A stretch of DNA of 64,000 nucleotides from positions 1,240,001 to 1,304,000 of the forward strand of contig CM102289.1 in NCBI GenBank assembly GCA_046563655.1, given 5' to 3'. Numbering within the stretch: position 1 is the stretch's first letter; every line of letters starts with the position of its first letter. The notes beneath the pieces are model-generated. The model was not told where the DNA came from. It searched no databases and worked only from the letters and a program-made list of their open reading frames with translations. The position numbers and the translations under genes are program-made. The DNA comes from Yuukianura sp. NJ FZ-2021. Taxonomy: Eukaryota. Shown one piece after another: positions 623 to 51,459 of this stretch.

Positions 623-1093
623 TTAACCCGAATGTTGCCCCATCCACTGCGCAAACTCATCAAGACTGATTCTGCCGTCCTTGTCCAAGTCAGCCTCAGC
701 TACAAACTGCTCATACGAAATGTCGCAATAGTGTGGGTTGTGAATCTTGTAGAGTACCATGTACTCCTCAAACTCTGGCAACGAAATGTACCCGTCTCCA
801 TCTTTGTCATAGACTTTTGCACGATTCTTTGACATTTTTTCATCGTCATGCCAATATTTCACAGTTTCAATCATTTCTCGCATGGGGATGTAGCCTCCAA
901 AATGTTGACGCCAATAGCGCTTGTAAGCGTCAATCTGCTCAGGCGTGCGTGGAAGGCCAATCCGCTCAAAGAAATGTCCAACGTCATTGGCTAAGAAGAA
1001 ACCTTCGTCGGAGAATGTCGGAATCCCTCGGAAAACGGATTTCACGCCTTCGAGCTCCTGTTCGGTAAATGGTTTAGTGAAGTCTCGTGACAT
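623..1093 (-). CDS. Calmodulin-like EF-hand protein, array copy 1 (156 aa)
   Basis: ATG at 1093 (MSRDFTKPF). Canonical EF loops DKDGDGYISLPE and DLDKDGRISLDE. Degenerate N-lobe. Clear paralogy with 13 other copies in the window. Confidence 0.9.
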   Translation of the reverse strand: MSRDFTKPFTEQELEGVKSVFRGIPTFSDEGFFLANDVGHFFERIGLPRTPEQIDAYKRYWRQHFGGYIPMREMIETVKYWHDDEKMSKNRAKVYDKDGDGYISLPEFEEYMVLYKIHNPHYCDISYEQFVAEADLDKDGRISLDEFAQWMGQHSG

Positions 1094-2063
1094 TGTATCT
1101 AACGAATAGTCACTCACTTTTCAAATAAAGTGAAAAAACAACAGTCACAAATACAAAAAATAAACTTAAGTTGGTCTCCTTTGGGAAGACAGTTTTCAAA
1201 TTTGAAAAAAGTGAAAGCAAAAGAAAATCAAAAAAAGGCTAAAAAGCTCTAAAAAGAGACAAAATATAATAATGGTCGGAAAAATTGTTGTTTTCTTCTC
1301 AAATTCTCAAATCGTTCAAAAAATTTTCCAACTTCCAAAAAGGGAATTACTGTTAATTCAACAGTAATTTTAAAAAATTGAAACATGTTTACCTTATTCA
1401 AGTCAAATGTAGAGTTCAACTGACGCGTTTGGAGTGATTTATCAAGCATTATATAATGTCTAGATTTTTAAATTTAATCAGAAAACCTGAAATTGATCAA
1501 TAAGTTTTTTAAAATAGAGGTGGAGGATTTATTTGATGGGAAAAACCCAATTAAACTAATTGATAGATTAGGTTAGGTTAGGCCAAACCTTGATAGACTA
1601 ACTATGTTTTTAGAGAATTCTGGCAAAGAAATGTGAGACCTATTTTCTTCTTACATTTTTTTTTATATTGAATGTTGAGACACATAAAGCTAAGATTTAA
1701 TACTTACTACATGTAATATATCTCATGGAAAATTTTTGTTTAAATGCGCAGTTGATCATGAAAATTTTTATATGAGGTGATAATTTTTCGATGATTATTC
1801 TAACTTGTTTGAGACTTTTATTTACTGAAAAGGCTGACTTGTTTCGTTCATCAGGCAGGTTTTGAGCTTTTTTTAATTGGACATTAATTAAGCTATTGCC
1901 GTTGTCAAGTAATTCACTTTTTCTCAAAGAGTAGCACTTTTTGTCTTTTTTCAAAGAGTGGCATTTTTTGACTTTTTTTGTAGATGATGTTTTATTTAAC
2001 TTGAAAATGCCTATACTTTTGCTTTCTCACATCAAAACGTATAAATTTCAGTTTAATCTAAGT

Positions 2064-2546
2064 TTACATCCCATTTTGACCCGAATGTTTCCCAATCCAC
2101 TTCGCAAATTCGTCGAGACTGACCTTGCCATCCTTGTTTGTGTCAGCCTCAGCTACAAACTGCTCGTACGTAAGGTTACGATAGTGCGGATTATGAATAC
2201 CGCACATTACCAGGAATTCCTCAAACTCTGGCATAGAAATGTACCCGTCTCCATCAATGTCATAGACCTTCACACGACCTCTCGCAAGTTTCTCGTCGTC
2301 GTGCCAATATCTCAAAGATTCAATCATCTCTCGCATGGGAACGTATCCACCGAAATGCTGGCGCCAATAACGTTGGTACATAGCAATTTGCTCAGGCGTG
2401 CGCTGTAGGCCGATTCGCTCACAGAAGAGTCCAACGTCATTGACCATGAAATAACCGTCGTCGGAGAATGTCGGAACTCCTCGGAAAATGGATTTCACAC
2501 CTTCGAGCTCCTGCTCTGTGTACGGTTTTGTGAAGTCTCGTGGCAT
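2064..2546 (-). CDS. Calmodulin-like EF-hand protein, copy 2 (160 aa)
   Basis: EF loops DIDGDGYISMPE and DTNKDGKVSLDE; intact ORF. Confidence 0.9.
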   Translation of the reverse strand: MPRDFTKPYTEQELEGVKSIFRGVPTFSDDGYFMVNDVGLFCERIGLQRTPEQIAMYQRYWRQHFGGYVPMREMIESLRYWHDDEKLARGRVKVYDIDGDGYISMPEFEEFLVMCGIHNPHYRNLTYEQFVAEADTNKDGKVSLDEFAKWIGKHSGQNGM

Positions 2547-3458
2547 TGTATCTAACGATTAGTTACTTCCCACCTAGAGTGAAAAAAAACACATAAATCT
2601 AATGTTAATTAATAGTTTTGGTCGGGAAATTGACTGTTTTTTTTCAAAGTTTCCACTGGTTCAAAAGATTTTTTCAAAAAGTTGATTGGTATTACTGCAA
2701 CAATAACTTTGAGAAGCGGAAACTTGCTTTTCGAACTGTAGTGGTGACCTGTTGCTTTTGAGGTGATTTATGAATGATTTAATTATGTCCAGATGCGAAA
2801 AAGTGAAATATTTCGAAATTTGTTCGAGTTTTCCAACTTAAGTTTTTAGTTTGTAAGTCTTGAATTGATGTGCGGAGCCGCTTTCGCTACTACCTTCAAA
2901 CAAAGGTGTCGAAGCTCTTTTTAAACAAATGGTGATCAGACGAAAGTGTGTTTAAAAACCAGAATGTCCAGAATTAAAAATTACTACGCAAACGACACTT
3001 GCGTCAAAGATAAATTAACAAGCAGCTTTTAGAATTTTATGACCAGAGAAGTTGATTTTTGAATTTTTGTTCCATGGTTTTGAATTCGAAGATTCGTGGA
3101 TTCAAATTAAGTTAAGCTGTTTTGAATCCGTGTAGTAGCTTTGTCTAGCCTGATTTTGCCATCATTAAAATTCTCTTTCGCAACTAGTTTTTTTTTCACA
3201 ACTCGTTTTATCTACAGGTCGTTTTAAACCAATTATTTCTTTGATTTCATTTTTTTTTAACTGAATTTTATGTTTCAATTTTTAGTGACATTAGACGACT
3301 AAAATCCAACTCTAAAGTCGGAAATGCCCTTACCCAGTAATTTTTTAATTCGGAGGTTTTATAATGCCCAAACGTAAAATGTACATTATTAAAATGTTTT
3401 AATGTTAAATATTTAAACATAAATATTTAAGTTCGAGTTTTCCATAATTAGTGGCTTT

Positions 3459-3929: not shown

Positions 3930-3943
3930 TGTATCTAACAAAT

Positions 3944-4301
3944 CAATCAATCAGTTTATTTGATCTTGGCCGATGCCCTATCAATTACATTCCTGCAGCT
4001 CGTTTAAGTTTTAAGAAGAACTTAGTTAGTATAACTTAGTTAAATGGTTAAAAATTAAGATAGAAGAATTAGTGCGTAGGCATAGTTGGGTCGAAAAGGT
4101 GTGTACAAATTGCAAAGTCAATTATAATTAAAAGAAAGAATATCTTCAAGGGAAAATTAAAAAACCTTATTCCAACTTTCATCTGCTTAGCATTGGTTCG
4201 AATATTTCCAGTATTTTAGCGTTGAAGTTTTGAATTTTTCCTATGAAGGCAGCGTCCGTTGCATTTGAGATGGTCCAAAGTATTGGGCACTGGTCTGGCG
4301 G
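3944..4301 (-). mobile_element. 5'-truncated LINE 3' fragment (~358 bp) with 13-bp TSD
   Basis: Reverse complement of the LINE 3' end at ~36371-36733, including AATAAA and the (GATT)n tail. Flanked by GTATCTAACAAAT at 3931-3943 and 4302-4314. Confidence 0.92.
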
Positions 4302-5085
4302 GTATCTAACAAATGGAACACTAGCAACACCTAGAGTAAAAACAAGTAAAAAATACAAATCTAACAATAAGTTTAATTGCGGAAAGAAAATGCTTATACT
4401 AATAATATCCAAAATTTCAAAATTTTGAAAAGTTAAAAGTTTAGGTAACAAAAATTTGGATAAATTGGAACAAGACATTTTAACTTACTCTTTGTCAAAT
4501 GTAGCGTTCAATTGATACGGTTGATTTGATTTGTCGAAACTTTTATAGTAAGATGACCTTGCCTAAATGTTTACTTGGAAAACAAGAAAACCCGAAATGA
4601 ATTAGTGCTGCAAAGTAAGAAAAATTGGTACCTGTTTCTTTACAAGTTTTGAACTTAAGTCGAAGGCTGAGATTCAAAATGTATGAAGTGGTTCACCATG
4701 AAATAATTTTCATGGAAGAAATTTGCACTTGAGTCATGAAGTTTATATAAGACAAAGAGAAGATTTTAACGAGAATTTTATTTCAATTCGTTTGACATCT
4801 GTTTGCATCAAATTATTTCTGGATCATTTTCTCTACGTGCAAGTGTTTTGAGAAATTAGATTTTTCGACCAGTTCGTTCGTTGTAATTCAACTTTCGTGG
4901 TAATTGGTTTCGGAAAAATTCATTCGGGAAATTCACTCAATGAAATGGCGTGACTCCCAACCTAAGTATGTAACCCAACCTAGTGACAAAATCAAGGTTT
5001 TGGTTATTTTGAAAATTCAGGAATTCAAGAAAAGAAAAATCATCAGAAAAGTTCCTTTAAATGCAACTTCTTTTTGTTTTTGTTT

Positions 5086-5568
5086 TCAAATTCGAGCTGA
5101 AATTGAATTTTTGTTCATCCATTCTTCAAATTCGTCCAGACTGACTTTGCCGTCCTTGTTTTCGTCTGCTTCTTCTAAAAATTGTTGAGATGAAATTTGA
5201 CGAAATCGTGGATTGTATGCTCGAACGAGTACCATAAACTCTTCAAACTCTTGAGCCGAAATGTATCCGTCCCCGTCAAGGTCGTAAGCTGCTGCCCGAT
5301 TTCGACAACATTTCGCTCCATCGTGAAAATTTTCAATAGTTTCCATCATTACACTCATTGGAATGTATCCTCCGTATCGTTGTCGCCAGTACCGTTCGTA
5401 CACTAATTCTTCCTCGGCCGAAAGTCCAAGCCCAATTCGTCTACTAAATAACGCAGTGTCGCTAGCCTTCATGTAACCCTCGTCGGAAAACGTCGGAAGT
5501 CCTCGGAAAATTGATTTAAAATTTTCTAGTTCCTCCTTTGTGTAGCGTCGTATAGAATCACTGGACAT
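5086..5568 (-). CDS. Calmodulin-like EF-hand protein, copy 4 (divergent subfamily, 160 aa)
   Basis: EF loops DLDGDGYISAQE and DENKDGKVSLDE. EEELVYERYW and HDGAKC signature shared with copies 8 and 14. Confidence 0.9.
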   Translation of the reverse strand: MSSDSIRRYTKEELENFKSIFRGLPTFSDEGYMKASDTALFSRRIGLGLSAEEELVYERYWRQRYGGYIPMSVMMETIENFHDGAKCCRNRAAAYDLDGDGYISAQEFEEFMVLVRAYNPRFRQISSQQFLEEADENKDGKVSLDEFEEWMNKNSISARI

Positions 5569-6326: not shown

Positions 6327-9300
6327 TTACGCAAAGATTTCTTTGTAAACACAGTTAACTGTAAACCATTTATTTACTCCAGGCACCAATTTCCCTTGAT
6401 TTTCTCGGGAAATCAATTTTACCCGTACATTTTCTTGCTTGGTGCATCTAGAGAATGCCACGTACAATTGACCGTGGCTGAACACTGGAAATGGCAGGTA
6501 AATACCTACTGAATCCAGGGACTGTCCTTGGGCTTTATTAATGCTCATAACGAAAGCCAAGGCCACTGGAAACTGGCGTCTTCGAATTTCAACTGAAAAG
6601 TCACTTTCAGAAGATATTAAGTCAATTCTAGGTAGAAGGACTTGTTGTCCTTCGTACCTTCCTTGTAGGATTTCAGCACAAATGACATTTGGCTTTAGGG
6701 ACTTAATAATAAGTCGTGTGCCGTTACATAGGCCACGTCTTTTATTCAAATTACGCAAAAGCATAATTATTGCTCCAACTTTGAGCTTTAGGTGGTGAAG
6801 TGGAAACCCAGAGGGTGTCAGGGTATTGATAAATTCGACAGGATAGTCCTCAGTCGAACCCTCTCCGTCGTCATCGACAGAATCCGTACTGAAGTAAGCG
6901 ACTTCTTGTCCTTCACTGCGGTATAATATTTGTTCATTTAGTTGATGAACATGTTCGTTCTTTGGCGTTAATATAGCTTTTTTAGCCAAAGCTTTTACAT
7001 TTTCTTCATCCAGCGAAATCTTTTCGCCAAAAATGGAGGAAATTAAATCATCTTCTTCGATACAATTCGTTGGGAGTTCAATTATGTCTTCTCCCAAATC
7101 GTATTCATTGGACAATTTTCCATCCCCGAGATCGAGGAGCCATTTATTGTATTCAATTTCTCCCGGGCCTGTACGCATATTTTCGAGAAGCTTGAGAGGT
7201 TTGAAATACCTCCAAACTTTGCTTCTTTTAAGCGAGGCTTGAACAATTTGGGCACGTTTACCGTGCTTGACAATTGGGAGTGTTTGTCTAAAATCCCCTC
7301 CAATTAGGAACAATTTATTTCCGAAGGGTTTATTTACTCCCATTATTTCTCGAAATAAGCGGTCAACGGCGTCCATGTTATAGCATGGAGTCATTGTGAC
7401 CTCGTCCCAAATAATAATAGAAGCTTCGCGTAAAAGCTTTGCTTCTTTAGACGTTGGTTTAATTTTGGACGTTGTCGTCTCATTTGTATGAATCCCAAGT
7501 CCAAATCTAGAGTGGTAAGTTGTACCAGCTTCTAGTAGTGTAGCTGCTAAACCAGTGGAGGCTACTAAGCATGTTTTTAAGCCTCTACCTTGAAAAGTTT
7601 TATCAAGAGTATTATAGAGGAAGGTTTTACCACTTCCTCCAGGGCCATCAATAAAAAAACATTTGCTGTACGTGTCAGCATTTTCTGCCAATAAAATCGC
7701 ATCATAAGCTTCCTTCTGGGCAGCATTCAACATTTCAGTCAAACGCTCTGCTTCAGAAGCAAGAGCTTGAATGTCAATACCTCCTAAGAGATCTTCCAAG
7801 TCATCTCTAGGCATGGGTAGGTTGTATTCAACGCAAGATTTGCGATGTAGATTTAGAGTTTCTTCGAGATCTCGCAAGCCCAGTTGCTCTGCCAGTTCAG
7901 GAGAATGTTCCTTCAAATAATCTTCTAGGAAATCTTCTTTGTAAGTTTCCCAGAGTGCCTTAGGATTCGTGGGTGGTCCAAAAACGCAAATCATTGCAAA
8001 TAAATCCCGTAATTGGTATGGCATTTGGTAAGTTATAGCATCCAAAATGCAGCTCTCCCACTGGGAATCATCAGAAAGAAGTTGCAAAGCAATAGCAGCT
8101 TCTTTAAATGTGTCATAGACAGTTCCATTTACCGTTCGAACATCTTTGAACGATTGTGCTCCTTTTACATGTAAAAGGAGCAGCCTTAAGTAAAACAATT
8201 CGCCTTGAGACACAGAAACAGTGTACATTCTAGAAATGGTTTTCCCAAAGGCTTTTTTCCTTGGGTTCCATTTATGCCATTTTCGGTTCCAGATATAATT
8301 CTCAGGAATTTCCGAATAGAGAAATCGGCGGGCATTTATATCAGCCCTGTTTAATTCAAAGTAGGCTTGAAGCATCGAACTGCTGAGATTCGCTTCTTCA
8401 AAAGCCCCTTCTTCATCCCCCTCTTCAAAATATACCTGTTGCATATTTTCGAGGTGAACAGGGAGTCTTTTGATTACATGGGATGTGTCATCCATTTTAT
8501 ACTTTCTGATACGCCATATTCCTTCCGGAGCGCTAATGTATCTAGAATCCACAAACTGTGCAGGTTCATCCCATGTTAAAGTATCGAGGCGTACGTTTGC
8601 ACAATCATGGCCTTTGTATATGTATTTGTACAAATATTTTACGCTTTTAATTGAAGCGCAAACTTCCACGTTAATATGACTGTTATATTTGAGTAACAAA
8701 TACGGATTGTAAGGTACAACCCATGAATTGTCAATCATTTGACTTCCAACCTTATATTGTATCCCAGTATCACGTCTTCGGTACTGAGGATAACCGTCTT
8801 GGTTGGGGTTTGTTTCGTTTACAAACGTCTTTGGGAATTTCTTAGAGCATTCTCCGTTGCTCATGCAAATAGAGGATGGATTCATTTGGCCGCAAGGTCC
8901 ATGAATCATATTCTGCAAAACTGTTGCATGAAGTCTTGGGTGTGTATCAGGATCTGGTATTTCCGCACACACCAATTTATCAATGGATTCGGGATCCTTA
9001 GGCTTGTTTTCCTCATCCAATATCAAAAGCATGTGGCAGTGAGGAAGCCCGCGTTTTTGAAACTCAATAACATAAACATATGCAATTACTTTGCCAAAAA
9101 TATTCTTTTTCAGAATATCATTCAAAAGTTCTTTCAATTTGAGTTTGAAAACTCGGGCAACTAAATCAGGGCGAAATTCAGCCCTTTGCCAAGGATCGAG
9201 ATTTTCTGTTATCTCCCGCCATTTTGGGTTGCAGGTCATTGTGATAAAGAGGTCTGGCTTTCCATATTTTCGTACAATGGTCATTGCGTCTTGGAAATTT

Positions 9301-10757
9301 TGTGCCATTGCTCTCGGGCTGCCAGTGAAGGACGACGGTAGAATTACCGCTGTCCCCGCTTTAAAGCCATTGTTTTGAGCAGTTTGGTTAATATGATCCA
9401 TTAATCCTGCGTAGCTATCGACACGCAAGGCCTTCTGATTCATACGAATATAGTTTAGCCTACTGGCTTCAATTTTAACATAACTGTCAACAATAAATTG
9501 TTGGGTTAGTTTGCCAGCATTTAAAATGGGATTAAATTCATCCCTTACCGCTAATCTGTACGCATAGTATTGTAATTGCGTAATTTTTTGCTTATCTTCT
9601 TCATCATTTTGTGGCTCTTCAATTTCGCCAATTGTGAGCCTTTGAAATTGGGTGCTCAATGCTTTACCTACGGTTAAATTGATAGTCCAACCACTATCAC
9701 CGTAGGGAAACAGCAATGGATAGGTCATTGCATCACACTTTTTATGTAAAAAGCTAATCGGCTGAGTTCTATTTTCAGTTCGGGAATGAATCCTTATGTC
9801 CCGGTTAAACGGAGGTTCGCCTAATGTATTTTGAAACACCACTGCAACTTCGTTGCATCTTGGGGCATTATACCTCCTCTGATCATCAGAATAGTCATTT
9901 ACAATAGACATTGAAATTTGATGAGGAACTCGACCTTCTTGTCGAGCTAAGTCCTCTTCTTCTAGTTCAAATTCTCGCATCATTTTATATGCGTGAGCAA
10001 AAGGATTAATTTGACGCATGAGAACGTCTAATTCATTCATTAGAGCCATGTTACAACCTTTATTGGAATTCTGGTTTGCTCGGTTAGTTAACGCCTCTCC
10101 TGCGTCAATAATATACAATTGGGCATATTCTGGCTGCTCGCCTTGACGTGGGTGCAGTGGCCCAGTCAAATGATAAATTTGTCCGTGAATACGGAAACAA
10201 TAAGGTCCATACCCAGGAGGTGGGGCAATTTGCGCTCCCATTGACGCAAAAGCTATTGCGCTATTGTAGGATCTGATATTTTCCACAAAATTCCGAGATA
10301 GTTCATTCTCATGTTTCATTAGATTAGTAATAAATTCATTTGTTCGTAGGTTAGGCAAAACAATTTTTCCTTTCTCGCAACATGAAGAAAATTGTTTATC
10401 ACTTGCCCTTTCCCCTTCAAAGTTTTTTGAATTGCAATGGGCACAACGCGCGGTCATGTTACCAATAGAATATTCTTGGACATTGCTTTCATTCAAGTGA
10501 AACCCCATTTGTCGTCCCAAATTTGAGTTAGCATCTGCACGCATTGCTGTTAGCGCCCTATGGCGCAAAGCATCGGATTCGCGGCGATGTGCGACTTCAT
10601 CGACGGATTGGTTAGCCCTTTCCAGCCTTTTAGGTTCTGCGTCATACTGGCGACGTTTAATAATAGCCTCTTCGGATTCCTGGGCACGGGCGAGTCTTTT
10701 ACGAATGGCTCCGGGAGTTTGGGAAAGCTCTCGTTTTCTTCCCGACATTATTAACAT
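6327..10757 (-). CDS. Helitron Rep/Helicase (HUH-Y2 nuclease plus PIF1-like SF1 helicase), 1476 aa
   Basis: DLFITMTCNPKW, VIEFQKRGLPHCHML (HUH), KYLYKYIYKG (Y2), Walker A GPGGSGKT, IIWDE, GGDFRQTLP, LCNGTRL, SINKAQGQS, HGQLYVAFSR. Uninterrupted ORF. Confidence 0.96.
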   Translation of the reverse strand: MLIMSGRKRELSQTPGAIRKRLARAQESEEAIIKRRQYDAEPKRLERANQSVDEVAHRRESDALRHRALTAMRADANSNLGRQMGFHLNESNVQEYSIGNMTARCAHCNSKNFEGERASDKQFSSCCEKGKIVLPNLRTNEFITNLMKHENELSRNFVENIRSYNSAIAFASMGAQIAPPPGYGPYCFRIHGQIYHLTGPLHPRQGEQPEYAQLYIIDAGEALTNRANQNSNKGCNMALMNELDVLMRQINPFAHAYKMMREFELEEEDLARQEGRVPHQISMSIVNDYSDDQRRYNAPRCNEVAVVFQNTLGEPPFNRDIRIHSRTENRTQPISFLHKKCDAMTYPLLFPYGDSGWTINLTVGKALSTQFQRLTIGEIEEPQNDEEDKQKITQLQYYAYRLAVRDEFNPILNAGKLTQQFIVDSYVKIEASRLNYIRMNQKALRVDSYAGLMDHINQTAQNNGFKAGTAVILPSSFTGSPRAMAQNFQDAMTIVRKYGKPDLFITMTCNPKWREITENLDPWQRAEFRPDLVARVFKLKLKELLNDILKKNIFGKVIAYVYVIEFQKRGLPHCHMLLILDEENKPKDPESIDKLVCAEIPDPDTHPRLHATVLQNMIHGPCGQMNPSSICMSNGECSKKFPKTFVNETNPNQDGYPQYRRRDTGIQYKVGSQMIDNSWVVPYNPYLLLKYNSHINVEVCASIKSVKYLYKYIYKGHDCANVRLDTLTWDEPAQFVDSRYISAPEGIWRIRKYKMDDTSHVIKRLPVHLENMQQVYFEEGDEEGAFEEANLSSSMLQAYFELNRADINARRFLYSEIPENYIWNRKWHKWNPRKKAFGKTISRMYTVSVSQGELFYLRLLLLHVKGAQSFKDVRTVNGTVYDTFKEAAIALQLLSDDSQWESCILDAITYQMPYQLRDLFAMICVFGPPTNPKALWETYKEDFLEDYLKEHSPELAEQLGLRDLEETLNLHRKSCVEYNLPMPRDDLEDLLGGIDIQALASEAERLTEMLNAAQKEAYDAILLAENADTYSKCFFIDGPGGSGKTFLYNTLDKTFQGRGLKTCLVASTGLAATLLEAGTTYHSRFGLGIHTNETTTSKIKPTSKEAKLLREASIIIWDEVTMTPCYNMDAVDRLFREIMGVNKPFGNKLFLIGGDFRQTLPIVKHGKRAQIVQASLKRSKVWRYFKPLKLLENMRTGPGEIEYNKWLLDLGDGKLSNEYDLGEDIIELPTNCIEEDDLISSIFGEKISLDEENVKALAKKAILTPKNEHVHQLNEQILYRSEGQEVAYFSTDSVDDDGEGSTEDYPVEFINTLTPSGFPLHHLKLKVGAIIMLLRNLNKRRGLCNGTRLIIKSLKPNVICAEILQGRYEGQQVLLPRIDLISSESDFSVEIRRRQFPVALAFVMSINKAQGQSLDSVGIYLPFPVFSHGQLYVAFSRCTKQENVRVKLISRENQGKLVPGVNKWFTVNCVYKEIFA

Positions 10758-14110: not shown

Positions 14111-15960
14111 TTAATGATATCGGGTTAGCTGGTCACATGAAATGGATCTTGACTTGTTTCCTAACATTTTGCGATTACTTGTCGAATTAGCACTAAAAAT
14201 CGGTATTCTGCTTTTGAAGTTAATGCAGGCAGTATTAGACGTATTTTGAGGTACTTTTTGAACTTTGCATCTTTCACGACGAGCTACTTGAAGTAAAACT
14301 TCACCGCTTTTGATACTTTTGAAAACATTTAAAGCTTCTGTATGCGTCACGCCAGCCAGAGGAGTTCCATTGATTGACAAAATTTCATCGCCTGACACCA
14401 AAAATCAGAATATTAATTAACACGAAACTTAATTAACAAAAAATTGCTAAGTTTCAAATTGATTACCTTCAGAAATTGTTCCATCTTCAACCGCTTGTCC
14501 GTTTGGAAAAATTCTTCTAACAAAAATGCCCATGCTGCCCTTAGCCGAATCTTTTCCGCCAACGACGCTGAATCCTAAGCCTTTCCGAGTGGGGCCTTTA
14601 TAAAACGAAATCGTAAATAGCGTAAGTGATACAGATTTTACTGACGCTTGTGTCATCGTGGGCGAATCTCTATCACGGACTTTGTTACGCAAGCGCAACG
14701 ACGGAGCCGATTGACGATGACTCTGAGTAGAGCAATTTGTAACCATTCCTGATTTTTCAGTTTTTGCTAAACTTGTGTCTTCATTTTCCAAATTCGAAAC
14801 GCTGTTGACTGCTTCTGCATAAACTTCTTCCAGCGCTTGTTTCAAAAGTTCTTCATGAATTGAAGTTTTTTCATAATCCGAGCATCCACTGCTGCTACTT
14901 GAATTAACGTCTTCCATTTGCTCAGGAATTGGCAGTTTTCCAGAATTTCTTGGCGATTCTTGTCCATTTCTGGTAGAGTCGCTGTCATAGCCGCTCTCTT
15001 CCTTCTGATTTAATTCTGCACCAAAAGTGATTGATTCGTCACTGGAATTTAAAATGTCACGAATTGAAAAAGAACGTCGTCGAAACAAGATTGTTTCTTA
15101 GACTGTTTTCAACTATGTCTTCCCACTGTGGTGTTTTATGCATCAAGTCAATTCGGATTTGACTCAGCGGGTCTGTCAGTCGCTGATGTCCATCGAAACA
15201 AGTTAAACTGGCGTTAGACAAAAGTGGACTTTGACCTAGGTCATGTTCATGCTGCAGAACTAAGTTGCCCATGCTGTGATACGAGTTTGGCAGATCGGTT
15301 GACCTGAAGTTGACTGAAGGTGTGGATGGTTCTTCTGGAAGTGAAGACAGCTCGGATCTATTGTAAGCATGTGGAAAAAATGAACGCTTTACAACAGCTC
15401 GAGCGTTTCCCAATCTGTAACTTCCGCCACTAAAAACTGAAATTGACGTTCCTCCTTCCAGGGTTGACGAATCGTCTTCTAAGTAAACACGGGATGTAAA
15501 ACAGAGGTTGTCGCAGCTAGTGGACTTTTCTAGCGGCTGTTGCTGAAATGACCTTTGACCTCTGCTGGTAAATCCAAGCAATTGGTGGTTGGAGACTCTT
15601 GGTCCAAGTCTTGAGTGTCCACGCCTTTGTCAATTTTTGTTTTAGAAGACTTTGGTTTGTTTGGTTTTAGTAAATTGCGTAATGATTCAACTCGGCTTAA
15701 ATTTCGTCTTAAGATTCCTGGATTCTTTCGATTGGACGACGATCTCTCGGAAGATTTGGTTGAAGCTTCGTAATTTTCGGGATCTTCGTGTTCTTCTTTA
15801 TAAGTTTGTTGAAAAACTGTGGCGGACTTTTTTGAATTGTATTTTGAAAACCCGAATATACTTTTGTCGAGTGTCATAGAGTTCAGTTTATCGCTGGATC
15901 CGGAACGACGCAGAGTGTCCCATGTCTTGTTGGCAACTTTTCTGCTCCATGTCGAAACGC
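14111..15960 (-). CDS. PDZ-domain protein (PDZD2/pro-IL-16-like C-terminal PDZ), multi-exon, 5' end not resolved
   Basis: [31 protein letters not shown]...[25 protein letters not shown], joined by a GT-AG intron at 14466-14392. Ser-rich upstream ORFs at 14467-15960 need further introns; one candidate (GTGGGA..TTCCAG) keeps frame. Acceptor at 15961/15960. Confidence 0.72.
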
Positions 15961-16646
15961 CTGAAAAATGAAAACTCAGCATCAAAATTCGATAAACAAA
16001 AGTAGCAACATAAGATTTAGAAAAAACGCCAACATTCTGCAGTAACAAGAACTGAAAGGTTTTGTAAATTGCAAATTGAGTGTCTTTCCGTTCGAATTGT
16101 TTCCTAGTTTCACAGCTTCACATTAAAAATTTGCCATAGTGTAAAAAATGTTGTTGCAAAAAGACCGCAAAAATGTGACAAATTTCGAAAGCACAGTGAA
16201 AATTTACCGGTAACTTCCGTTTCAAGCAAAACAAAATTAAAGAACTCATCTTCCGTTGTCGGAAGAAACGTGAAGAAAAGTCGATGTGATTAATCTCTTA
16301 GAAGTTACAGGACCGCTGAACCGTTTGACTGCGCGCATGCGCTCGAGGCAAAAACTTTCTGAACAAATTGGCGCCATTATGACCAACAAACTAACCTAAC
16401 AAAAATACAATAGCAGAAAAAAGAAAAAGTAAAGATTCACAAACTTTTTACATTAGTTTTTACTTTTTACATTAGTTTTTACTTTTTACAAGTAAAAATT
16501 GATTCTGATCTTTCAGGATGCGGTTTCAGTTCAAAAGAACAGTATGATTCAAACAATTCTTTTTAAGGAAAAACTTCCCGCTTTGTCCCACTTTTCCAAA
16601 ACTTAATAAGGTACCAGCGTAGTAATTATGTTAGGAATTTTTCTGG

Positions 16647-17339: not shown

Positions 17340-17699
17340 TTATTTGCCTGGTTTGGTAAATGCACACTTCTCCTCTCTTACGTTGCAATTAATTGCCTGT
17401 CCGTTTTTCTTGCTAGTGCAGCAGTTTACAAAGTTAGTGAAAGCTTCCTTGGTTGGAGCATCACAGACATAGCCCTTTTTACCACCTTCAAGGTCTCGCT
17501 TGTAGCAATTATAAATGTCGCTCTTCCCTTTTTCCAGCTGCACTTCGCAGTCCATCGTATTTTTGTCATTGTACGTCGAAGAAACCTCTGACGAAGTGGC
17601 AGCACATAGAACGGAACGAAAGTAGGCAGCTTCTGTCTCCTTCGTCAAAGATGCAAAAATGACCATTGCAAAAACGGACCACAACAGTACCTTCCTCAT
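17340..17699 (-). CDS. Small secreted cysteine-rich protein (119 aa, 8 Cys), unknown function
   Basis: ATG at 17699, just after a splice acceptor. Signal-peptide-like MRKVLLWSVFAMVIFASLTKETEA. Eight cysteines including a CC pair. Upstream donor (~17797) and TATAAA (~17932-17937). Confidence 0.75.
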   Translation of the reverse strand: MRKVLLWSVFAMVIFASLTKETEAAYFRSVLCAATSSEVSSTYNDKNTMDCEVQLEKGKSDIYNCYKRDLEGGKKGYVCDAPTKEAFTNFVNCCTSKKNGQAINCNVREEKCAFTKPGK

Positions 17700-23967: not shown

Positions 23968-23985
23968 TGGTCCTTCGAACCGGAT
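23968..23985 (+). other. Primer-binding site complementary to the tRNA-Tyr 3' end
   Basis: TGGTCCTTCGAACCGGAT immediately after the 5' LTR. Confidence 0.85.
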
Positions 23986-29741: not shown

Positions 29742-29791
29742 TAGACATCGCTTATTTTTAGTATGAACGTGCACGTTCATACGGGGGGGAA

Positions 29792-30772
29792 TGTAGCGAC
29801 GATGTCCTTTTTTTTATTTTTTCTGGTAATTAAATTTTAATTCAGTGATCGTCTGCCCTCCCCTTATGGACGTGCCCGTAGTTAGGCGTTCTTCTAGTTT
29901 AGGCATTCATCTAGTTATAGGTCTTCTAGATATAGGCAGTATAGGTTAGCAGTTTTTTTAGGTTAAGTTGGAATTCCCCCTGTTAACCCCTGCTCCCTTT
30001 AGTTTAAGCTCAGATATGGTTTTTCCCCTTTGTCAGCCCTCCCCCTAGGTTATTCATTCAGTAGCGTAAGTCTTTTCTTTCAGCAGCTAAGGGATAGGAA
30101 GGAGTAAGATGTTACCCCCGGACATCACGTTTGGGTGGTAAAATCTTCCTTCTTCTGGCTCCTCCCCTCCTTTCTCTATAAATACCTGTGTATTTCAGTT
30201 CGACAGTCAGTAAGAAATCAGTAATCAGTCAGTTCAGAATACACTCTCTTGGTCGGAAGTTCTCTTGTTCTCAGTTTCATTCATTCGACAGTCGAATTAG
30301 ACACTCGGCATTAGACTTTCGGCAGTCGACACTCGACACTCGGCATCAGACACTCGGCATCAGACACTCGGCATCAGACACTCGGCATCAGATATTCGGC
30401 AGTCGACACTCGGCACAAGACGTTCGACTCAAGACACTCGGCACAAGACACTCGGCACAAGACACTCGGCATTAGACATTCGGCATTAGACATTCGGCAT
30501 TAGACATTCGGCATTAGACATTCGGCATTAGACTTTCGACAGTCGCATTAGACGTTGGGAATTCGACAACAGATTTAGTGTGAACCCATCCTTCATATAG
30601 CCATTGGGATACCGTTCGTGGTAGTATCTGGCCGGCCTTACACACCGACAGATACATCTATACCACAGTCCTCCTCATTCTAACAGTTTCGGTTGAGTTG
30701 TTTCCGTCAGTTCAGTTACTCAGACTTGTTCTATATTGTGCTCTAAAAAATTCTGGAGCTATCGAAATTACA
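29792..30772 (+). repeat. 3' LTR (981 bp)
   Basis: By eye it matches the 5' LTR except for one fewer 14-bp repeat unit and one extra C in a C-run. Confidence 0.95.
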
Positions 30773-32477: not shown

Positions 32478-32953
32478 TCAAGCGGAAATAGAATTTTTCT
32501 TTATCCATTCCTGAAATTCGTCGAGACTGACTTTGCCGTCTTTGTTTGAATCTGCCTCTTCTACAAACTTGGCATACGAAATATGGCGATAATTTGGGTT
32601 GTGAATTCGGTACATTGCCATGTACTCCTCAAACTCTGGCATCGAAATGTATCCGTCTCCATCAAAGTCGTAGACTTGCGCACAATTCCTAGCCAGTTTT
32701 GCTTCGTCGTGCCAATATCTCAGAATTTCAATCATTATCCTCATAGGGATGAATCCGCCATAACGTAGGCGCCAATAACGTTCGTAGATTGCAATCTGCT
32801 CGGGCGTGCGCGGAATTCCGATCCGCTCAAAGAAAAGTCCGACTTCGCTTGCCAGGAAAAACCCTCGTCGGAGAATGTCGGAAGTCCTCGGAAAATGGAT
32901 TTCACACCTTCGAGCTCCTGCTCGGTGTACGGTTTCGTGAAGTCACGTGACAT
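32478..32953 (-). pseudogene. EF-hand copy 9, with a 1-nt frameshift in a T-run after FSDEG
   Basis: ATG at 32953. GGT TTT TC CTG lacks one base versus paralogs (~32857-32861); the remainder is colinear. Could be an assembly homopolymer error. Confidence 0.75.
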
Positions 32954-32966
32954 TGTCTCACTTGAG

Positions 32967-33315: not shown

Positions 33316-34243
33316 TTAAAATGTTAACGTAAGCTTTAGAAAAATTTTGATAAACTGAAACGAGACATGCTTAACTTACTCTGACAAACTGCTTACTTCA
33401 ACTGACGCGTATAAAGAGGTTTGTGAAAAATTAATATTTATTATTCGTTATTTAATAACGAGATGGCCATGGCATTGCCTAAATGTTTAGCTGGTAAACC
33501 AGAAAACCTGAAATTAATTCACTAATACTTGTTTCGCGACTTTTTTAATTTGGAACAAGTTTTTAACTGAAGTCGAAGGTTGAGAATCATAATCTAAAAT
33601 ATGGTTTACCATGAAGTAAATTTCATGAATGAAATTTACACTTGGTCATGAAATTTTTCACCCCAAGGGAGAATTTTAACGAAAATATAAACTTGTTTAA
33701 AAATGATCTACGCCATGCTTTTTTGGTTCAACTTTTTGCTTTCATGTTTTTTTAAGCAGTATTTTGAAACCTTTTGTTTGTCAGGTTATGGGTTGACAAA
33801 TAGTACGCAAAAATTCAAAATTTTCTAAAATTTGCCTAAAGTTAGTACTTATTTCGTGTATTGCAATGTAAACTCTGCACAGTAAATGATAATGAACTGC
33901 ATCAACGCATAGTTAGCTGATTTTTTCTAATAATCACATTTCAAACTTTTGTTTTTGTTTTCGCTCTTGCTTTATTTAACTTCAATGTATTTTAATCAAC
34001 GCCAAAATAGACCTCAAATGTTTAAATCTCGGTTTATTTCGTGTTTAAAACGCTTTTTGAGCGGAATGTTTGCCCATCCATTTGGCAAATTCATCAAGAC
34101 TGATCTTGCCGTCTCTGTCCGTGTCAGCTTCTTCTACAAACTGCTCATACGTAAGGTCACGATAGTGCGGATTGTGAATACCGCAGAGGACCAAGAACTC
34201 CTCAAACTCTGACATGGAAATGTAGCCGTCTCCATCAATGTCG
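33316..34243. repeat. 928-bp direct duplication, left copy (right copy 36735-37662), flanking the LINE
   Basis: Constant offset of 3419. First ~680 bp identical by eye; ~8 substitutions in the last ~250 bp. Confidence 0.93.
34045..34243 (-). pseudogene. EF-hand copy 10: 3' half only, a duplicate of the copy 11 C-lobe
   Basis: DIDGDGYISMSE...KHSAQKAF* is identical in protein to the C-terminus of 37464-37946. The 5' half is replaced by the LINE. Confidence 0.9.
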
Positions 34244-36736
34244 CAATACGCAAATTCCGAAGGTGTAATACTGAAAACAGAGAGGTCTATGCCCAACGCT
34301 ACCTTGAAGCCCAAAAGAGCTACAAACAACAATTAGCAAACAAGAAATCAACGTTTAATTCGAACTTGGTCTCACAACTCCACGCTTCAAAGGACCCAAA
34401 AAATTTCTGGAAGGCGGTCAAATTCCACACAACTCAACACACCGTACAAGACAAAATCTCCAAGGAAACATGGTTCCAACACTTCCAGAACCTTTTCAAT
34501 TCAAACCAGGTTCCAAGGGATGTGCTACCAGAAAGCCGTGTTATAGAAAACGAGATCCTTGACCGCGACATAACAGCTCTGGAAATAAGACTGGCGACCA
34601 AGGAACTAAAAACAAACAAAGCGACAGGTCCTGACATAATCCCGAACGAGGTTTGGAAATCTGCCACTCCTAAGCTTCTATTATTCCTTGTCACTCTCTT
34701 CCAATCCATTTTTACAAGCGGGGTATTGCCAACTCAATGGTGCAACGCGCAAATTCATCCACTTCACAAAAAAGGCTCAAGGGACCTTCCAGAAAACTAC
34801 CGCCCAATATCGTTGATGAACACAATTCTGAAAGTATTCACCAAAATCCTCAACTCAAGACTCACAAACTGGATAAACATCAACCATAAAATTTCGGATT
34901 TCCAGGCTGGTTTTCGGAAATCAAGATCATGTACAGACCATATCTTCACTTTGATGTCCATGATCCAGTGCCAACTCCTAAGAAGGAAGGAACTGTATGT
35001 CGCCTTCGTTGATTTGTCTCAAGCCTTCGACACACCTAACCATAGTCTGTTATGGGCTGTCCTCGGCAACCTGGGTGTCTCCAACAAGTTCCTAAAAGTA
35101 TTCCGGTCACTGTACGACAATGCCACTGCCCAAATTAACACCAGAGAAGGCTTAACAGACCCGGTCAAGATCATGAAAGGAGTCCTGCAAGGAGAATCTG
35201 CTAGTCCCACACTCTTCAATCTGTTTATTGAGGACCTCGTCTCCAAGTTCTCTTCATCGCTACTGAAAGGTTATACCTTAGGTTCCCGAATTGTTCACAT
35301 CCTCCTGTACGCCGACGACCTTGTCATCACTGCTCAATCCAAAGAATTGCTGCAGGAGAAAATCAAACTCGCCTCCAACTTCTTCAAAGCGAGAGGACTC
35401 TGCGTCAACCTGGCCAAGACAAAAGTAATAGCTTTCCGTCGCTCAGGAAGAATTCGAAAAGACGACCACTTTCTCTGGAACGAAACCCCGATAGAGACCG
35501 TTTCGGAGTACAAGTACCTCGGCGTTATGTTCCAGTCAAATGGCTCATTCCGAAAAGCAGCAAGGAACGCCGTAGAGAAAGGAACCTCAGCACAAGGAGC
35601 GACCCTGAGGGTACTGAAGAAACAGAAGTACATTGACCTATGGACTATTAAAATGCTGCTACAATCACTAGTAAAATCAACCACACTGTACAACTGTGAA
35701 ATCTGGGGCCATCTCCACACTGACACCTTGGAAACGGTACAACAAAGTTACTTCAAACGTCTTCTCCACCTACCGTTTGCTACTCCCAGGTACTTTGTTA
35801 GATTGGAAACCGAATCTCTACCACTGCAATACGAAATCGTCAAAAGAACCTGGTACTTATATGCAAAATTCCACACCAACCTGGGTTCTGACCTCACAAG
35901 AAACGCATACTACCAGCTGCGTAAAATCACCTCTCTTCGCCCAGACGTCAAATACAGTTGGTGCACACAACTTAGATCCGCTCTCGCCCAGATTGGTCAA
36001 GAGGAGTCTATGATAGAGGAGCCGAGACCGAGACAAGAGCCCTGAAGCATACTATGGTACAGAAATTTAGGAACTTCTACCAAAAATCAGACGTAAGAAA
36101 AGCTGCACTATCGAAATCCATTCCTCACTACGCTGAAATCCACCAGAAATTCCCAGCGTCAGAGCTATTCTCCAAGCGGTTTCCTACGTATCTTACGATT
36201 CCAATTCTTCAAATCAGGCTCAACTCAAACCAGCTCTATTTCAACCGGAAATGGCTTGACTTTGGCCAGTTTACCGAAAAGAACTGCAGTTTTTGTGGCG
36301 ATCAACTCTCATACTACCATGCACTTTGGACTTGTCCGCAAACTGAACCCCTGAGAATCCAATTAAAACTCCCGCCAGACCAGTGCCCAATACTTTGGAC
36401 CATCTCAAATGCAACGGACGCTGCCTTCATAGGAAAAATTCAAAACTTCAACGCTAAAATACTGGAAATATTCGAACCAATGCTAAGCAGATGAAAGTTG
36501 GAATAAGGTTTTTTAATTTTCCCTTGAAGATATTCTTTCTTTTAATTATAATTGACTTTGCAATTTGTACACACCTTTTCGACCCAACTATGCCTACGCA
36601 CTAATTCTTCTATCTTAATTTTTAACCATTTAACTAAGTTATACTAACTAAGTTCTTCTTAAAACTTAAACGAGCTGCAGGAATGTAATTGATAGGGCAT
36701 CGGCCAAGATCAAATAAACTGATTGATTGATTGATT
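34244..36736 (+). mobile_element. 5'-truncated non-LTR retrotransposon (LINE; RTE-X/L2-like, clade uncertain)
   Basis: RT ORF, C-terminal CCHC motif, 3' UTR with AATAAA and a (GATT)4 tail. No endonuclease domain present. Confidence 0.92.
34366..36494 (+). pseudogene. LINE ORF2 remnant: reverse transcriptase plus frameshifted C-terminal CCHC domain
   Basis: KATGPD, NYRPISL, FQAGFR, FVDLSQAFD, GVLQGESASP, LLYADD, YKYLG. Frame change and stop near 36045, before CSFC-x7-H-x4-C in 36054-36494. Confidence 0.9.
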
Positions 36737-37463
36737 AAAATGTTAACGTAAGCTTTAGAAAAATTTTGATAAACTGAAACGAGACATGCTTAACTTACTC
36801 TGACAAACTGCTTACTTCAACTGACGCGTATAAAGAGGTTTGTGAAAAATTAATATTTATTATTCGTTATTTAATAACGAGATGGCCATGGCATTGCCTA
36901 AATGTTTAGCTGGTAAACCAGAAAACCTGAAATTAATTCACTAATACTTGTTTCGCGACTTTTTTAATTTGGAACAAGTTTTTAACTGAAGTCGAAGGTT
37001 GAGAATCATAATCTAAAATATGGTTTACCATGAAGTAAATTTCATGAATGAAATTTACACTTGGTCATGAAATTTTTCACCCCAAGGGAGAATTTTAACG
37101 AAAATATAAACTTGTTTAAAAATGATCTACGCCATGCTTTTTTGGTTCAACTTTTTGCTTTCATGTTTTTTTAAGCAGTATTTTGAAACCTTTTGTTTGT
37201 CAGGTTATGGGTTGACAAATAGTACGCAAAAATTCAAAATTTTCTAAAATTTGCCTAAAGTTAGTACTTATTTCGTGTATTGCAATGTAAACTCTGCACA
37301 GTAAATGATAATGAACTGCATCAACGCATAGTTAGCTGATTTTTTCTAATAATCACATTTCAAACTTTTGTTTTTGTTTTCGCTCTTGCTTTATTTAACT
37401 TCAATGTATTTTAATAAACGCCAAAATAGTCCTCAAATGTTTAAATCTCGGTTTAAATTGTGT

Positions 37464-37946
37464 TTAAAACGCTTTTTGAGCGGAATGTTTGCCCATCCAC
37501 TTCGCAAATTCATCAAGACTGATCTTGCCGTCTCTGTCCGTGTCAGCTTCTTCTACAAACTGCTCATACGTAAGGTCACGATAGTGCGGATTGTGAATAC
37601 CGCAGAGGACCAAGAACTCCTCAAACTCCGACATGGAAATGTAGCCGTCTCCATCAATGTCGTAGAGTTTTGCACAATTCTTAGCCATATTGGCTTCGTC
37701 ATGCCAATATCTCAACACGTCAATCATTTCTCGCATGGGGACGTAGCCTCCAAAATGTTGGCGCCAATAGCGTTGGTAGGCTGCAATCTGCTCGGGACTA
37801 CGAGGAACACCGATCTGCTCAAAGAAAAGTCCAACTTCACTCGCCAGCATGAAACCTTCGTCGGAAAATGTCGAAAGTCCTCGGAAAACGGATTTCGCAT
37901 TTTCTAGCTCCTGCTCGCTATAGGGTTTGGTGGAGTCACGTGTCAT
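37464..37946 (-). CDS. Calmodulin-like EF-hand protein, copy 11 (160 aa)
   Basis: EF loops DIDGDGYISMSE and DTDRDGKISLDE; closest to copy 2. Confidence 0.9.
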   Translation of the reverse strand: MTRDSTKPYSEQELENAKSVFRGLSTFSDEGFMLASEVGLFFEQIGVPRSPEQIAAYQRYWRQHFGGYVPMREMIDVLRYWHDEANMAKNCAKLYDIDGDGYISMSEFEEFLVLCGIHNPHYRDLTYEQFVEEADTDRDGKISLDEFAKWMGKHSAQKAF

Positions 37947-49458: not shown

Positions 49459-49929
49459 TTAGGCCGAATTCTTTTCTATCCATTCTGCAAATTCGTCGAG
49501 ACTGATCTTGCCGTCCTTGTTTGAATCTGCCTCTTCTACAAACTTGGCATACGAAATGTCACGATAGTGTGGATTGTGAATTCGGTACATCGCCATGAAC
49601 TCCTCAAACTCTGCCATGGAAATGCACCCGTCTCCATCAATGTCGTAGATTTGTGCACGAACCTTGGCCAGTTTCCCGTCGTCGTTCCAATATCTCAGAG
49701 TTTCAATCATTATCCGCATGGGGACAAACCCACCAAAACGTAGTCGCCAATAACGTTCGTACATGGCAACCTGCTCTGGCGTGCGTGGAAGGCCGATTCG
49801 CTCAAAGAACAGTCCAAGGTCACTCGTCAGTATGAAACCTTCGTCGGAAAATGTCGGAAGTCCTCGCAAAATTGATTTCACACCTTCGAGTTCCTGCTCG
49901 GTAAATGGTTTGGTGAAGTCACGTGACAT
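49459..49929 (-). CDS. Calmodulin-like EF-hand protein, copy 13 (156 aa)
   Basis: ATG at 49929. EF loops DIDGDGCISMAE and DSNKDGKISLDE. Confidence 0.9.
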   Translation of the reverse strand: MSRDFTKPFTEQELEGVKSILRGLPTFSDEGFILTSDLGLFFERIGLPRTPEQVAMYERYWRLRFGGFVPMRIMIETLRYWNDDGKLAKVRAQIYDIDGDGCISMAEFEEFMAMYRIHNPHYRDISYAKFVEEADSNKDGKISLDEFAEWIEKNSA

Positions 49930-50952
49930 TGTATCGTGACAATGAAATACTCCGTATACACACCTAGAGTAAATAATAGCAGAATAAAGACACAATTTTA
50001 ACCAAGGTTGCTTGACAGTCATTTACTGTTCTGTAACAGGTTGCATAGTACCTCAGTTGCTTACCAAAAAATGAAAATAAAAAACGGAGTACCAAAAGTA
50101 CCCATTCCAAAAAACGAGTTTCTGGCAATAATTCGTAATGTAAAATTTTTAAAAATTTGTTTATAATGTGATGGTTACATATCCACAAAATGCAAATTAA
50201 CCTTGTGAAATGTAAAAAACACGAGTTATTACGCAACCTGATGAGTTAAGGACTGTTAATACAACAATAATTTTGAGAAATAAGTAACAAAACGTGCTTA
50301 CCTTACTCCGTCAACTGTAGAGTTCAACTGATGCGTTTGAGGTAATTTGTTGAGAATTTATTGATGAGATAACCTTGTCTAAACTTATACCTCAAAAGCA
50401 GAAACACCTTAAATTGGTCAATTATTTTGAGCCTCAAAATTTTAAAAACTATTAATCTTGTGACGTTAAGTCGATGCCAGCGCTAAGACGCTCTTCAGTG
50501 GCACCGCATGAACTCTGCAGCGAAATAACGCAGACGTTTTTCAGAAAAGCAGATCTTTCAGCGGAATTCGAAAAAAACAAACGAAAAAAGAATTGGGAGG
50601 CGTTGTACTCAAACAAAATTTTAAATTAAGTTTAAGGGTGATCAGTATTATTATTATTATTATATATTACTCAAACTCAGTTTTTACCATGTAATAATTT
50701 TGAAGAATTTTTTTCATTTGTACAGTTGACCTTGAACATTTTTATACCAGAGGGGAGAATTTTTTGATGATTTGGTTTAAATTCTTTTAAACAGGATGCA
50801 TCAACCTTTTATTAGTCTTTTTCTTAAATGAAACGTGTTTTGAAAATTTTTGAAAATTTGAAAGTTTGACCACTATCCGCCGTTTGTAAACTCATCGTTT
50901 CTGCTTATGAAAACCAAATTCCAGAAACGTCTCAACTGCTAAGTCCTTGAAT

Positions 50953-51459
50953 TCATTTTTTCGTTGTTTTTTCAAGTTCAGTTGGATTTGGAACCGAATT
51001 TTTATGAATCCACTCTTCAAACTCGTCGAGACTGACTTTTCCGTCGTCATTTTTGTCCGCTTCTTTCAGAAATTGTTCAGATGAAATTTGACGAAATCGA
51101 GGATCGTATGCTCGAACGAGTGCCATAAACTCTTCGAACTCTTGCCCCGAAATGTATCCGTCCCCGTCAAGGTCGTATACTGCTGCCCGATTTCGACTAC
51201 ACTTTGCTCCGTCATGATAATTTCGAATAGTGTCTACCATTTCACACATTGGAATGTAGCCTCCGAATCGTTGCCGCCAGTACCGTTCGTATACTACTTC
51301 TTCCTCGGTTGATAGTTTAAGTCCAATTAGATTACAGAATAACGCAGCGTCACTAACCTTGATGTAACCCTTGTCGGAAAACGTCGGGAGTCTTCGAAAA
51401 ATTGACTTAAAATTTTCCATCTCCTGCTCTGTATAAGGTCGGCTCGAATCATGCGGCAT
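50953..51459 (-). CDS. Calmodulin-like EF-hand protein, copy 14 (divergent subfamily, 168 aa)
   Basis: ATG at 51459. EF loops DLDGDGYISGQE and DKNDDGKVSLDE; C-terminal extension. Confidence 0.9.
   Translation of the reverse strand: MPHDSSRPYTEQEMENFKSIFRRLPTFSDKGYIKVSDAALFCNLIGLKLSTEEEVVYERYWRQRFGGYIPMCEMVDTIRNYHDGAKCSRNRAAVYDLDGDGYISGQEFEEFMALVRAYDPRFRQISSEQFLKEADKNDDGKVSLDEFEEWIHKNSVPNPTELEKTTKK

Follow-up and report, generated by a model that had tools for sequence, protein, structure and literature searches.

A 14-locus array of calmodulin-like genes with a conserved N-lobe that lacks canonical Ca2+ loops in Yuukianura sp. NJ FZ-2021

Gene copies in the array

The window analyzed here, a 64,000-nucleotide (nt) stretch of DNA from Yuukianura sp. 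NJ FZ-2021 (GenBank assembly GCA_046563655.1, contig CM102289.1, positions 1,240,001 to 1,304,000 of the forward strand), contains an array of small genes that encode calmodulin-like EF-hand proteins. A listing of open reading frames (ORFs), called under the standard code, and a tblastn search of the copies against the window place one gene family at 14 loci across positions 623-51459, in 15 match clusters, and bear out the count and coordinates of the 14-copy array that an earlier sequence-only reading had proposed. Eleven of these loci are intact, single-ORF genes of 156-168 amino acids (aa), and the other three are defective (Table 1). The array begins 622 nt inside the window edge, and may extend past it. 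In the counts and trees that follow, the 12 window copies are the 11 intact ones and the split copy c8.

The C-lobe is the more conventional half of these proteins. The Pfam EF-hand pair (EF-hand_7) is found at residues ~90-152 of all 12 copies, with expectation values between 1e-10 and 1e-14 in the 11 intact genes. An EF-loop pattern of the PROSITE type matches at residues 96 and 135 in 11 copies and at 96 alone in c8; EF3 is thus canonical by this pattern in all 12 copies and EF4 in 11, including every intact copy, as had been claimed. The same pattern detects no canonical N-lobe Ca2+ loop (EF1 or EF2) in any of the 12 copies, as against four matches in a calmodulin-like control. In an alignment with a coral calmodulin-like protein, which is colinear over the whole chain, the counterpart of EF1 reads F-R-x-L-P-T-F-S-D-E-G-F-I and that of EF2 reads Y-W-R-Q-H-F-G-G-Y-I-P-M-x-E. 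Among the copies, the EF1 region reads PTFSDEG or a variant of it (PTFSDDG, PTFSNEG, STFSDEG, PSFSDEG or PTFSDKG), and the EF2 region follows the motif Y-x-R-Y-W-R-Q-H/R-F/Y-G-G. The replacement motifs quoted for the two former loops are therefore confirmed by the alignment, with minor exceptions in the EF2 region of c10 (C-Y-N-Y-W), c8 (W-Q-Q) and c11 (W-R-L-R).

All window copies also share a broader signature consisting of F..P-T/S-Y/F, R-T-P-E-Q, Y..YW...G-G and H-D, followed by H-(D/N)-P between EF3 and EF4 and a tryptophan after EF4. The proteins start with MPRD, MSRD, MTRD, MSSD or MPHD; none of the copies has a Met-Gly myristoylation start, and no signal peptide was recognized by eye.

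Each gene consists of a single coding exon, and in every copy a polypyrimidine tract and a YAG trinucleotide lie 5-40 nt before the ATG. In subgroup A, the YAG is followed by a shared leader that ends, in most copies, in GATACA-ATG or a near variant. This upstream pattern reads as a 3' splice acceptor, and the genes probably have an additional, non-coding 5' exon at some distance before it. The listed ORF of c11 reaches position 50022 by way of an upstream ATG that lies across an acceptor-like site, and its start is placed here at the homologous ATG. No TATA-like hexamer occurs within 200 nt of any ATG, and AATAAA or ATTAAA is present within 300 nt downstream in 10 of the 12 copies.

Table 1. 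Loci of the calmodulin-like family in the window, with the retrotransposon that splits copy c8
Feature	Positions	Strand	Evidence
c1, intact, 156 aa	623-1093	-	Complete ORF; EF-hand pair at residues 94-151; loops at 96 and 135
c2, intact, 160 aa	2064-2546	-	ORF, Pfam EF-hand pair, loop pattern
c3, intact, 156 aa	3459-3929	-	ORF, Pfam EF-hand pair, loop pattern
c4, intact, 160 aa, divergent subgroup B (with c8 and c12)	5086-5568	-	ORF, Pfam, tree
c5, intact, 157 aa	11868-12341	-	ORF, Pfam, loop pattern
c6, intact, 159 aa	20436-20915	-	ORF, Pfam, loop pattern
c7, intact, 158 aa, sole copy on the + strand	21829-22305	+	ORF, Pfam, loop pattern
c8, 3' piece, codons ~121-160, EF4	22852-22971	-	tblastn, 80% identity to c4 residues 121-160; adjoins the retrotransposon starting at 22971
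Long terminal repeat (LTR) retrotransposon, full-length	22971-30773	+	LTRs 22971-23968 and 29789-30773, 98.4% identical over 999 nt
c8, 5' piece, codons 1 to ~120	30774-31135	-	Alignment, tblastn
Pseudogene copy, one frameshift near codon 31, otherwise open	32490-32965	-	Two tblastn segments, frames -1 and -3
3' partial duplicate of c9, codons 96-160	34048-34242	-	tblastn; 65 aa identical to c9 (the copy at 37464)
c9, intact, 160 aa	37464-37946	-	ORF, Pfam, loop pattern
c10, intact, 156 aa	39742-40212	-	ORF, Pfam, loop pattern
c11, intact, 156 aa from the homologous ATG	49459-49929	-	ORF, alignment, inspection of upstream sequence
c12, intact, 168 aa, subgroup B	50953-51459	-	ORF, Pfam, tree

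Relatives, ancestry and selection

A HMMER scan over 1.84 billion cluster representatives yielded 786 matches with E values up to 1e-3, of which 76 reach 1e-10 or lower; the best are full-length proteins of 154-165 aa with 40-48% identity to the window copies. About 70 representatives, at 30-48% identity, share the N-lobe signature. A hidden Markov model (HMM) built from residues 1-84 of the window copies, and thus from the N-lobe only, matches 72 of 180 retrieved proteins, 59 of which are 140-240 aa long. In 34 aligned relatives, the N-lobe signature is conserved: P25 in 29, T/S26 and Y/F27 in 33 each, E52 in 29, Q53 in 26, Y57 in 24, W61 in 22, G67 in 32 and H82 in 30. Further conserved positions are H118 (26/34), P120 (29/34) and W150 (33/34). 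Both C-lobe loops are kept in 45 of the 59 relatives and a canonical N-lobe loop is found in one, as counted with the last position of the EF-loop pattern dropped. Given this signature and these loop counts, an N-lobe that is Ca2+-free and yet conserved is a trait of the whole family and not specific to the array.

The window clade does differ from its relatives at individual positions. The first position of the EF2 loop is arginine in the window clade, as opposed to aspartate (18/34) or glutamate (6/34) in the relatives, and position 147 is phenylalanine as opposed to cysteine in 23 of 34. His82, His118 and, in those 23 relatives, Cys147 (numbered as in c3, and with Phe147 in the window copies) are conserved outside the Ca2+ loops, which might reflect an interlobe contact or a metal site.

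In word-index searches, which sample words and cannot show absence elsewhere, the sole named family members found were four Folsomia candida proteins with 29-36% identity over more than 90% of their length, annotated as 'calcium-binding protein 2-like', LOC110855971, LOC118439013 and LOC110855326. They share both the N-lobe signature and the C-lobe loops of the window copies. A further member, from a eukaryote collection, is labelled as a transcriptome assembly, and the rest are unnamed proteins from metagenomes or read assemblies; the two metagenome relatives that were inspected are single uninterrupted ORFs. A word-index search with a single copy gave four weak calmodulin-like matches, a result that is due to the method and not to an absence of relatives. 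When related loci were searched with an alignment of closer members, 68 were obtained, including four near-full-length members and one partial member, the others being generic EF-hand or calmodulin-like loci. The ESM Atlas returned only generic EF-hand clusters, at 0.91-0.92 and of mixed taxa, and was uninformative. On the basis of these sequence matches, the family is likely to be restricted to springtails. No description of it was found in literature on calcium-binding or calmodulin-like proteins of Collembola or F. candida, nor was one found by term look-ups in the main texts of the papers on the genomes of Orchesella cincta and Folsomia candida. In the databases it is present only as automatic annotations, and is otherwise uncharacterized.

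Positions 7-153 of the family profile align to residues 3-148 of calmodulin (E ~1e-17 to 1e-18), and the best 60 of its 608 PDB matches comprise calmodulin, calmodulin fusions, CaBP1 and EFCAB6. When PDB sequences were searched with a single copy, calmodulin C-lobes alone were matched. The assignment to a calmodulin-like family with four EF-hands thus stands, and "calmodulin-derived" is plausible in the sense that descent from a calmodulin-like ancestor fits. The profile alignment would be compatible with descent either from calmodulin proper or from another calmodulin-like protein. With calmodulin and calmodulin-like proteins such as CaBP1 and Drosophila Androcam, the window proteins share length, helix-loop-helix spacing, canonical EF3 and EF4 loops and two lobes that are both EF-hand pairs (Z 9-10). 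They differ in that EF1 and EF2 are without Ca2+ ligands, and in that the linker between EF3 and EF4 is three residues longer and contains the conserved H-(D/N)-P. Furthermore, whereas calmodulin is near-invariant in sequence, the window family is multi-copy and fast-evolving. Neither of two hallmarks of calmodulin proper is seen: there is no canonical N-lobe loop in any copy, as opposed to four functional loops in calmodulin, and identity is not very high to animal calmodulin, amounting to 21-29% across calmodulins (21-26% to solved calmodulins and 29% to the coral calmodulin-like protein).

A tree of 73 rows, built by a quick maximum-likelihood search from the 12 window copies, 59 relatives and two calmodulin-like outgroups, unites the window copies in one clade, with a support of 98 in the Shimodaira-Hasegawa-like approximate likelihood ratio test (SH-aLRT). 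Subgroup B is nested within this clade with a support of 100, and the F. candida proteins are split between two clades outside it. The array has thus expanded by tandem duplication within its own lineage. The sequence-only reading had treated the family itself as lineage-specific, but its members are not confined to this genome, as is seen from the ~70 representatives, which include the four F. candida proteins.

Pairwise Nei-Gojobori estimates were made for 55 pairs of copies; three pairs are saturated over the whole gene, and the number rises if each lobe is considered on its own. The median nonsynonymous (dN) and synonymous (dS) divergences are 0.18 and 0.87, and the median dN/dS is 0.17 overall, 0.21 in the N-lobe and 0.16 in the C-lobe, with values of 0.09-0.29 for every pair with finite dS. 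No 15-codon window exceeds a dN/dS of 0.40 when pooled over the nine subgroup-A copies, although the region of residues 71-90 is mildly raised (0.28-0.34). The low pairwise ratios and the absence of any window above 0.40 indicate purifying selection and not broad diversification. That the N-lobe is constrained, as had been proposed, is supported both by its median ratio and by the conservation of the same positions in the 34 distant relatives; the "diversifying specificity" proposed alongside it is not supported by the same estimates, and pervasive diversifying selection was rejected.

Hypervariability is suggested at no more than one or two single sites. Site 81 (W/T/F/M/Y), which adjoins the invariant H-D, has nonsynonymous and synonymous differences of pN 0.54 and pS 0.11, and site 102, at position 7 of the EF3 loop, is also variable; by this crude method, site 81 and perhaps site 102 are candidates for positive selection. 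The segments quoted earlier for the end of the central helix (VKYWH, LRYTH, LKYMH, LRNMH, VRCFH, IENFH and IRNYH) are all present, and to call the helix as a whole highly variable overstates a variation that is concentrated at residues 79-81.

Copies c3 and c6 are 93% identical over 545 nt of DNA, and among c3, c5 and c6 the dS is 0.12-0.19 in the N-terminal half as opposed to 0.38-1.5 in the C-terminal half, which suggests gene conversion of the 5' halves. Birth-and-death evolution, as originally put forward, is supported by the single clade and the three defective copies, and the history of the array, as read from these sequences, is one of birth and death with some concerted evolution under purifying selection.

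Predicted structure and possible function

AlphaFold models were obtained from alignments of 13 rows (predicted local distance difference test, pLDDT, 88.5; predicted template modeling score, pTM, 0.78) and of 38 rows (pLDDT 94.5, pTM 0.85). The model is made up of four helix-loop-helix units, and short strands in the loops, at residues 32-34 and 68-70, are paired. A break in the interlobe helix, at residues 80-83, coincides exactly with the conserved H-D, and the notion of a long central helix is at odds with this model. The N-lobe (6-82) and the C-lobe (82-156) each match solved EF-hand pairs. For the N-lobe, the top matches (Z 9.4-10.2) are calmodulin N-lobes that are calcium-free, Mg-bound or Zn-trapped, and apo-calmodulin bound to IQ motifs or to SidJ; the best of them (Z 9.7-10.2) align over 74-77 residues. 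An apo-like state of the N-lobe is only a lean in the modelled structure.

Over the whole chain, the predicted protein matches GCAP1 (Z 8.8, 143 residues, root-mean-square deviation (rmsd) 3.5), AtCBL2 (8.7-8.8), CIB2 and CIB3 (7.6-8.2) and NCS1 (8.0). The rmsd for GCAP1, CBL2, CIB3 and NCS1 is 3.5-4.8, as compared with 12-15 for calmodulin or troponin C. AtCBL2 (8.7) and CIB2 (7.6) recur in an independent structure search, and further whole-chain matches include a CatSper EF-hand subunit (Z 8.2) and calaxin (Z 6.7). The predicted shape of the window protein is thus compact and globular, with the helix between the lobes interrupted, and not a calmodulin-like dumbbell.

The resemblance to the CIB, CBL and NCS-GCAP families (Z 7.6-8.8 over 135-146 residues) is one of predicted fold. 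In CIB1, only EF3 and EF4 bind metal, and the predicted metal sites of the window proteins are likewise confined to this pair. However, the window proteins are ~30 residues shorter and lack the N-terminal Met-Gly start, a myristoylation signal that is a trait of the NCS family, and none of these families is found among the best 60 of the 608 PDB matches to the family profile. Inactive N-terminal sites are also known from amphioxus calcium vector protein, myosin essential light chains and arthropod troponin C, all of which are bound regulatory subunits, and the N-lobes of fly troponin C F1 and of myosin light chains match that of the window protein at Z 7.3-8.0. No specific sequence kinship with these proteins was seen among the best 60 PDB matches to the family profile, a search in which calmodulin outscores all of them, and the family-specific N-lobe motifs are not known to be features of calcium vector protein, essential light chains or troponin C. 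The nearest functional analogues are CIB proteins and light-chain-like relatives of calmodulin.

The reading that is somewhat favored is that the window proteins are cytosolic Ca2+ sensors or regulatory subunits with two C-lobe sites and a Ca2+-independent N-lobe. It is drawn from the structure matches, and also from the lack of a Met-Gly start and of a visible signal peptide. Such a protein would fold as a compact globule of the NCS/GCAP/CBL/CIB kind, in which the N-lobe would serve as a Ca2+-independent, apo-like structural or anchoring module, and binding of Ca2+ at EF3 and EF4 would switch an interaction with a target helix. Its role as a sensor or regulatory subunit would in that case parallel that of CIB proteins, and the paralogues may serve different targets or tissues. 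Several points weigh against this interpretation. The compact packing comes from prediction only, and the search tool describes Z scores of 8-10 as common among helical proteins. The apo forms lead the calcium-bound calmodulin N-lobes by no more than one Z unit (10.2 as compared with 9.2-9.3), and the identity that c3, c5 and c6 show in the N-lobe owes something to probable gene conversion. Finally, a buffer would account equally well for a compact two-site protein encoded in many copies.

That buffering or storage role, comparable to that of sarcoplasmic Ca-binding proteins or parvalbumin, with amplification for dosage and no specific target, is the less probable of the two, and still a realistic one. 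It accounts for two canonical sites in a compact predicted globule, and for 11 intact copies under similar purifying selection with no diversifying region. However, half of the protein is predicted to bind no Ca2+, and a buffer has no obvious need for the Ca2+-free N-lobe and the N-terminal MPRD..KPYT motif that are conserved in relatives at 30-48% identity. Moreover, the paralogues are old, as the median dS attests, and have diverged (dN 0.1-0.35) instead of being kept identical for dosage. It is improbable that the proteins are Ca2+-switched small-molecule binders or enzymes with an aromatic N-lobe pocket, in the manner of juvenile hormone diol kinase or coelenterazine-binding proteins and perhaps tied to neighboring terpene-synthase-like and UDP-glycosyltransferase (UDPGT) genes. 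The conserved aromatics in the former EF1 and EF2 loops invite this idea, as do the terpene-synthase-like ORFs and the UDPGT ORF located 4-12 kb beyond the array, but the conserved loop residues lie where EF-loops pack (strands 32-34 and 68-70), for which a structural role suffices, the terpene-synthase assignment is below the Pfam cut-off, and proximity of genes is weak evidence. Juvenile hormone diol kinase, sarcoplasmic Ca-binding proteins and coelenterazine-binding proteins are not among the matches listed in the sequence and structure searches. A related and rather improbable proposal is that of a springtail-restricted calmodulin offshoot, in which the N-lobe would be a Ca2+-independent aromatic module for a terpenoid-like ligand or a lineage-specific target, the C-lobe would be the switch, and residue 81, by the His-Asp hinge, would tune specificity.

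It is very improbable that the array is a decaying or non-functional collection of retroposed or selfish duplicates. Three of its 14 loci are defective, and a Helitron, an LTR element and a reverse-transcriptase element are interspersed among the copies. Yet 11 ORFs have stayed intact at the divergence given above, acceptor-like sites precede every copy, and full-length relatives exist elsewhere, one of them labelled as a transcriptome assembly; on the low dN/dS of all pairs with finite dS, a decaying pseudogene array was rejected.

Mobile elements, neighboring genes and significance

The transposable elements alongside the copies are of types typical for animal genomes. These elements, the named relatives in F. 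candida and the weak terpene-synthase-like ORFs described below are all in keeping with a springtail as the probable host. Copy c8 is cut at about codon 120 by the LTR retrotransposon, and its listed 5' ORF (30743-31249) begins at an upstream ATG and continues into LTR sequence. The element encodes an uninterrupted 1855-aa polyprotein (24174-29741) that, judged by eye from the translation, appears to be of the gag-protease-RT-integrase type (RT, reverse transcriptase), and its insertion into c8 looks recent. The partial duplicate of c9 sits in a duplicated segment of 928 nt (33316-34243 and 36735-37662; 99.1% identity), whose two copies lie on either side of a reverse-transcriptase element with the Pfam domain RVT_1 at 34816-36045. 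A 362-nt segment is present in two inverted and 100% identical copies, one at 3941-4302, directly upstream of c3, and the other at 36371-36732, where the reverse-transcriptase element borders on the c9 duplication. The segment probably represents the terminus of a non-LTR element that was active recently.

Other ORFs lie between the copies. An apparently intact Helitron Rep/helicase ORF of 1476 aa (6327-10757, - strand; Helitron_like_N, E 1e-65; PIF1, E 6e-57) separates c4 from c5. Between c5 and c6, ORF fragments at 14447-15982 (- strand) that include part of a PDZ domain (E 1.2e-5) resemble the exons of a longer, interrupted gene inside the array. A 119-aa ORF at 17340-17699 (- strand), with a signal-peptide-like start, eight cysteines in the mature part and no Pfam match, may encode a small secreted protein.

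Beyond the array, two sets of terpene-synthase-like ORFs of microbial type were weakly detected at 55399-56310 (+ strand) and 62470-63397 (- strand). The match to PF19086 scores 20.9 bits, below the cut-off of 23.7, and that to PDB terpene synthases has an expectation value of 0.05; the two loci are 31% identical to each other over 59 aa across the metal-binding N-D-x-x-G-L-x-K-D region. Terpene-synthase-like genes of this kind are reported in 26 springtail genomes (PMC13638087). Between the two loci lies a UDPGT exon at 61355-62203 (+ strand; PF00201, E 2.8e-16) with a signal-like N-terminal start, and these genes may form a small secondary-metabolism neighborhood. An uninterrupted 843-aa ORF at 56550-59081 (- strand) has a hydrophobic N-terminus and several further hydrophobic stretches. 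Its candidacy as an ionotropic receptor found no support, as it has neither a Pfam match nor a PDB sequence match.

At present, the array represents a solid gene-family annotation and not a new mechanism. It documents an uncharacterized, apparently springtail-type branch of calmodulin-like proteins that has undergone tandem multiplication, and in which half of the protein gave up Ca2+ binding and is nevertheless conserved. If the copies are expressed and bind targets, they would provide a natural example of the repurposing of an EF-hand lobe, and could bear on the Ca2+ physiology of springtails, including moulting, renewal of the gut epithelium and muscle.

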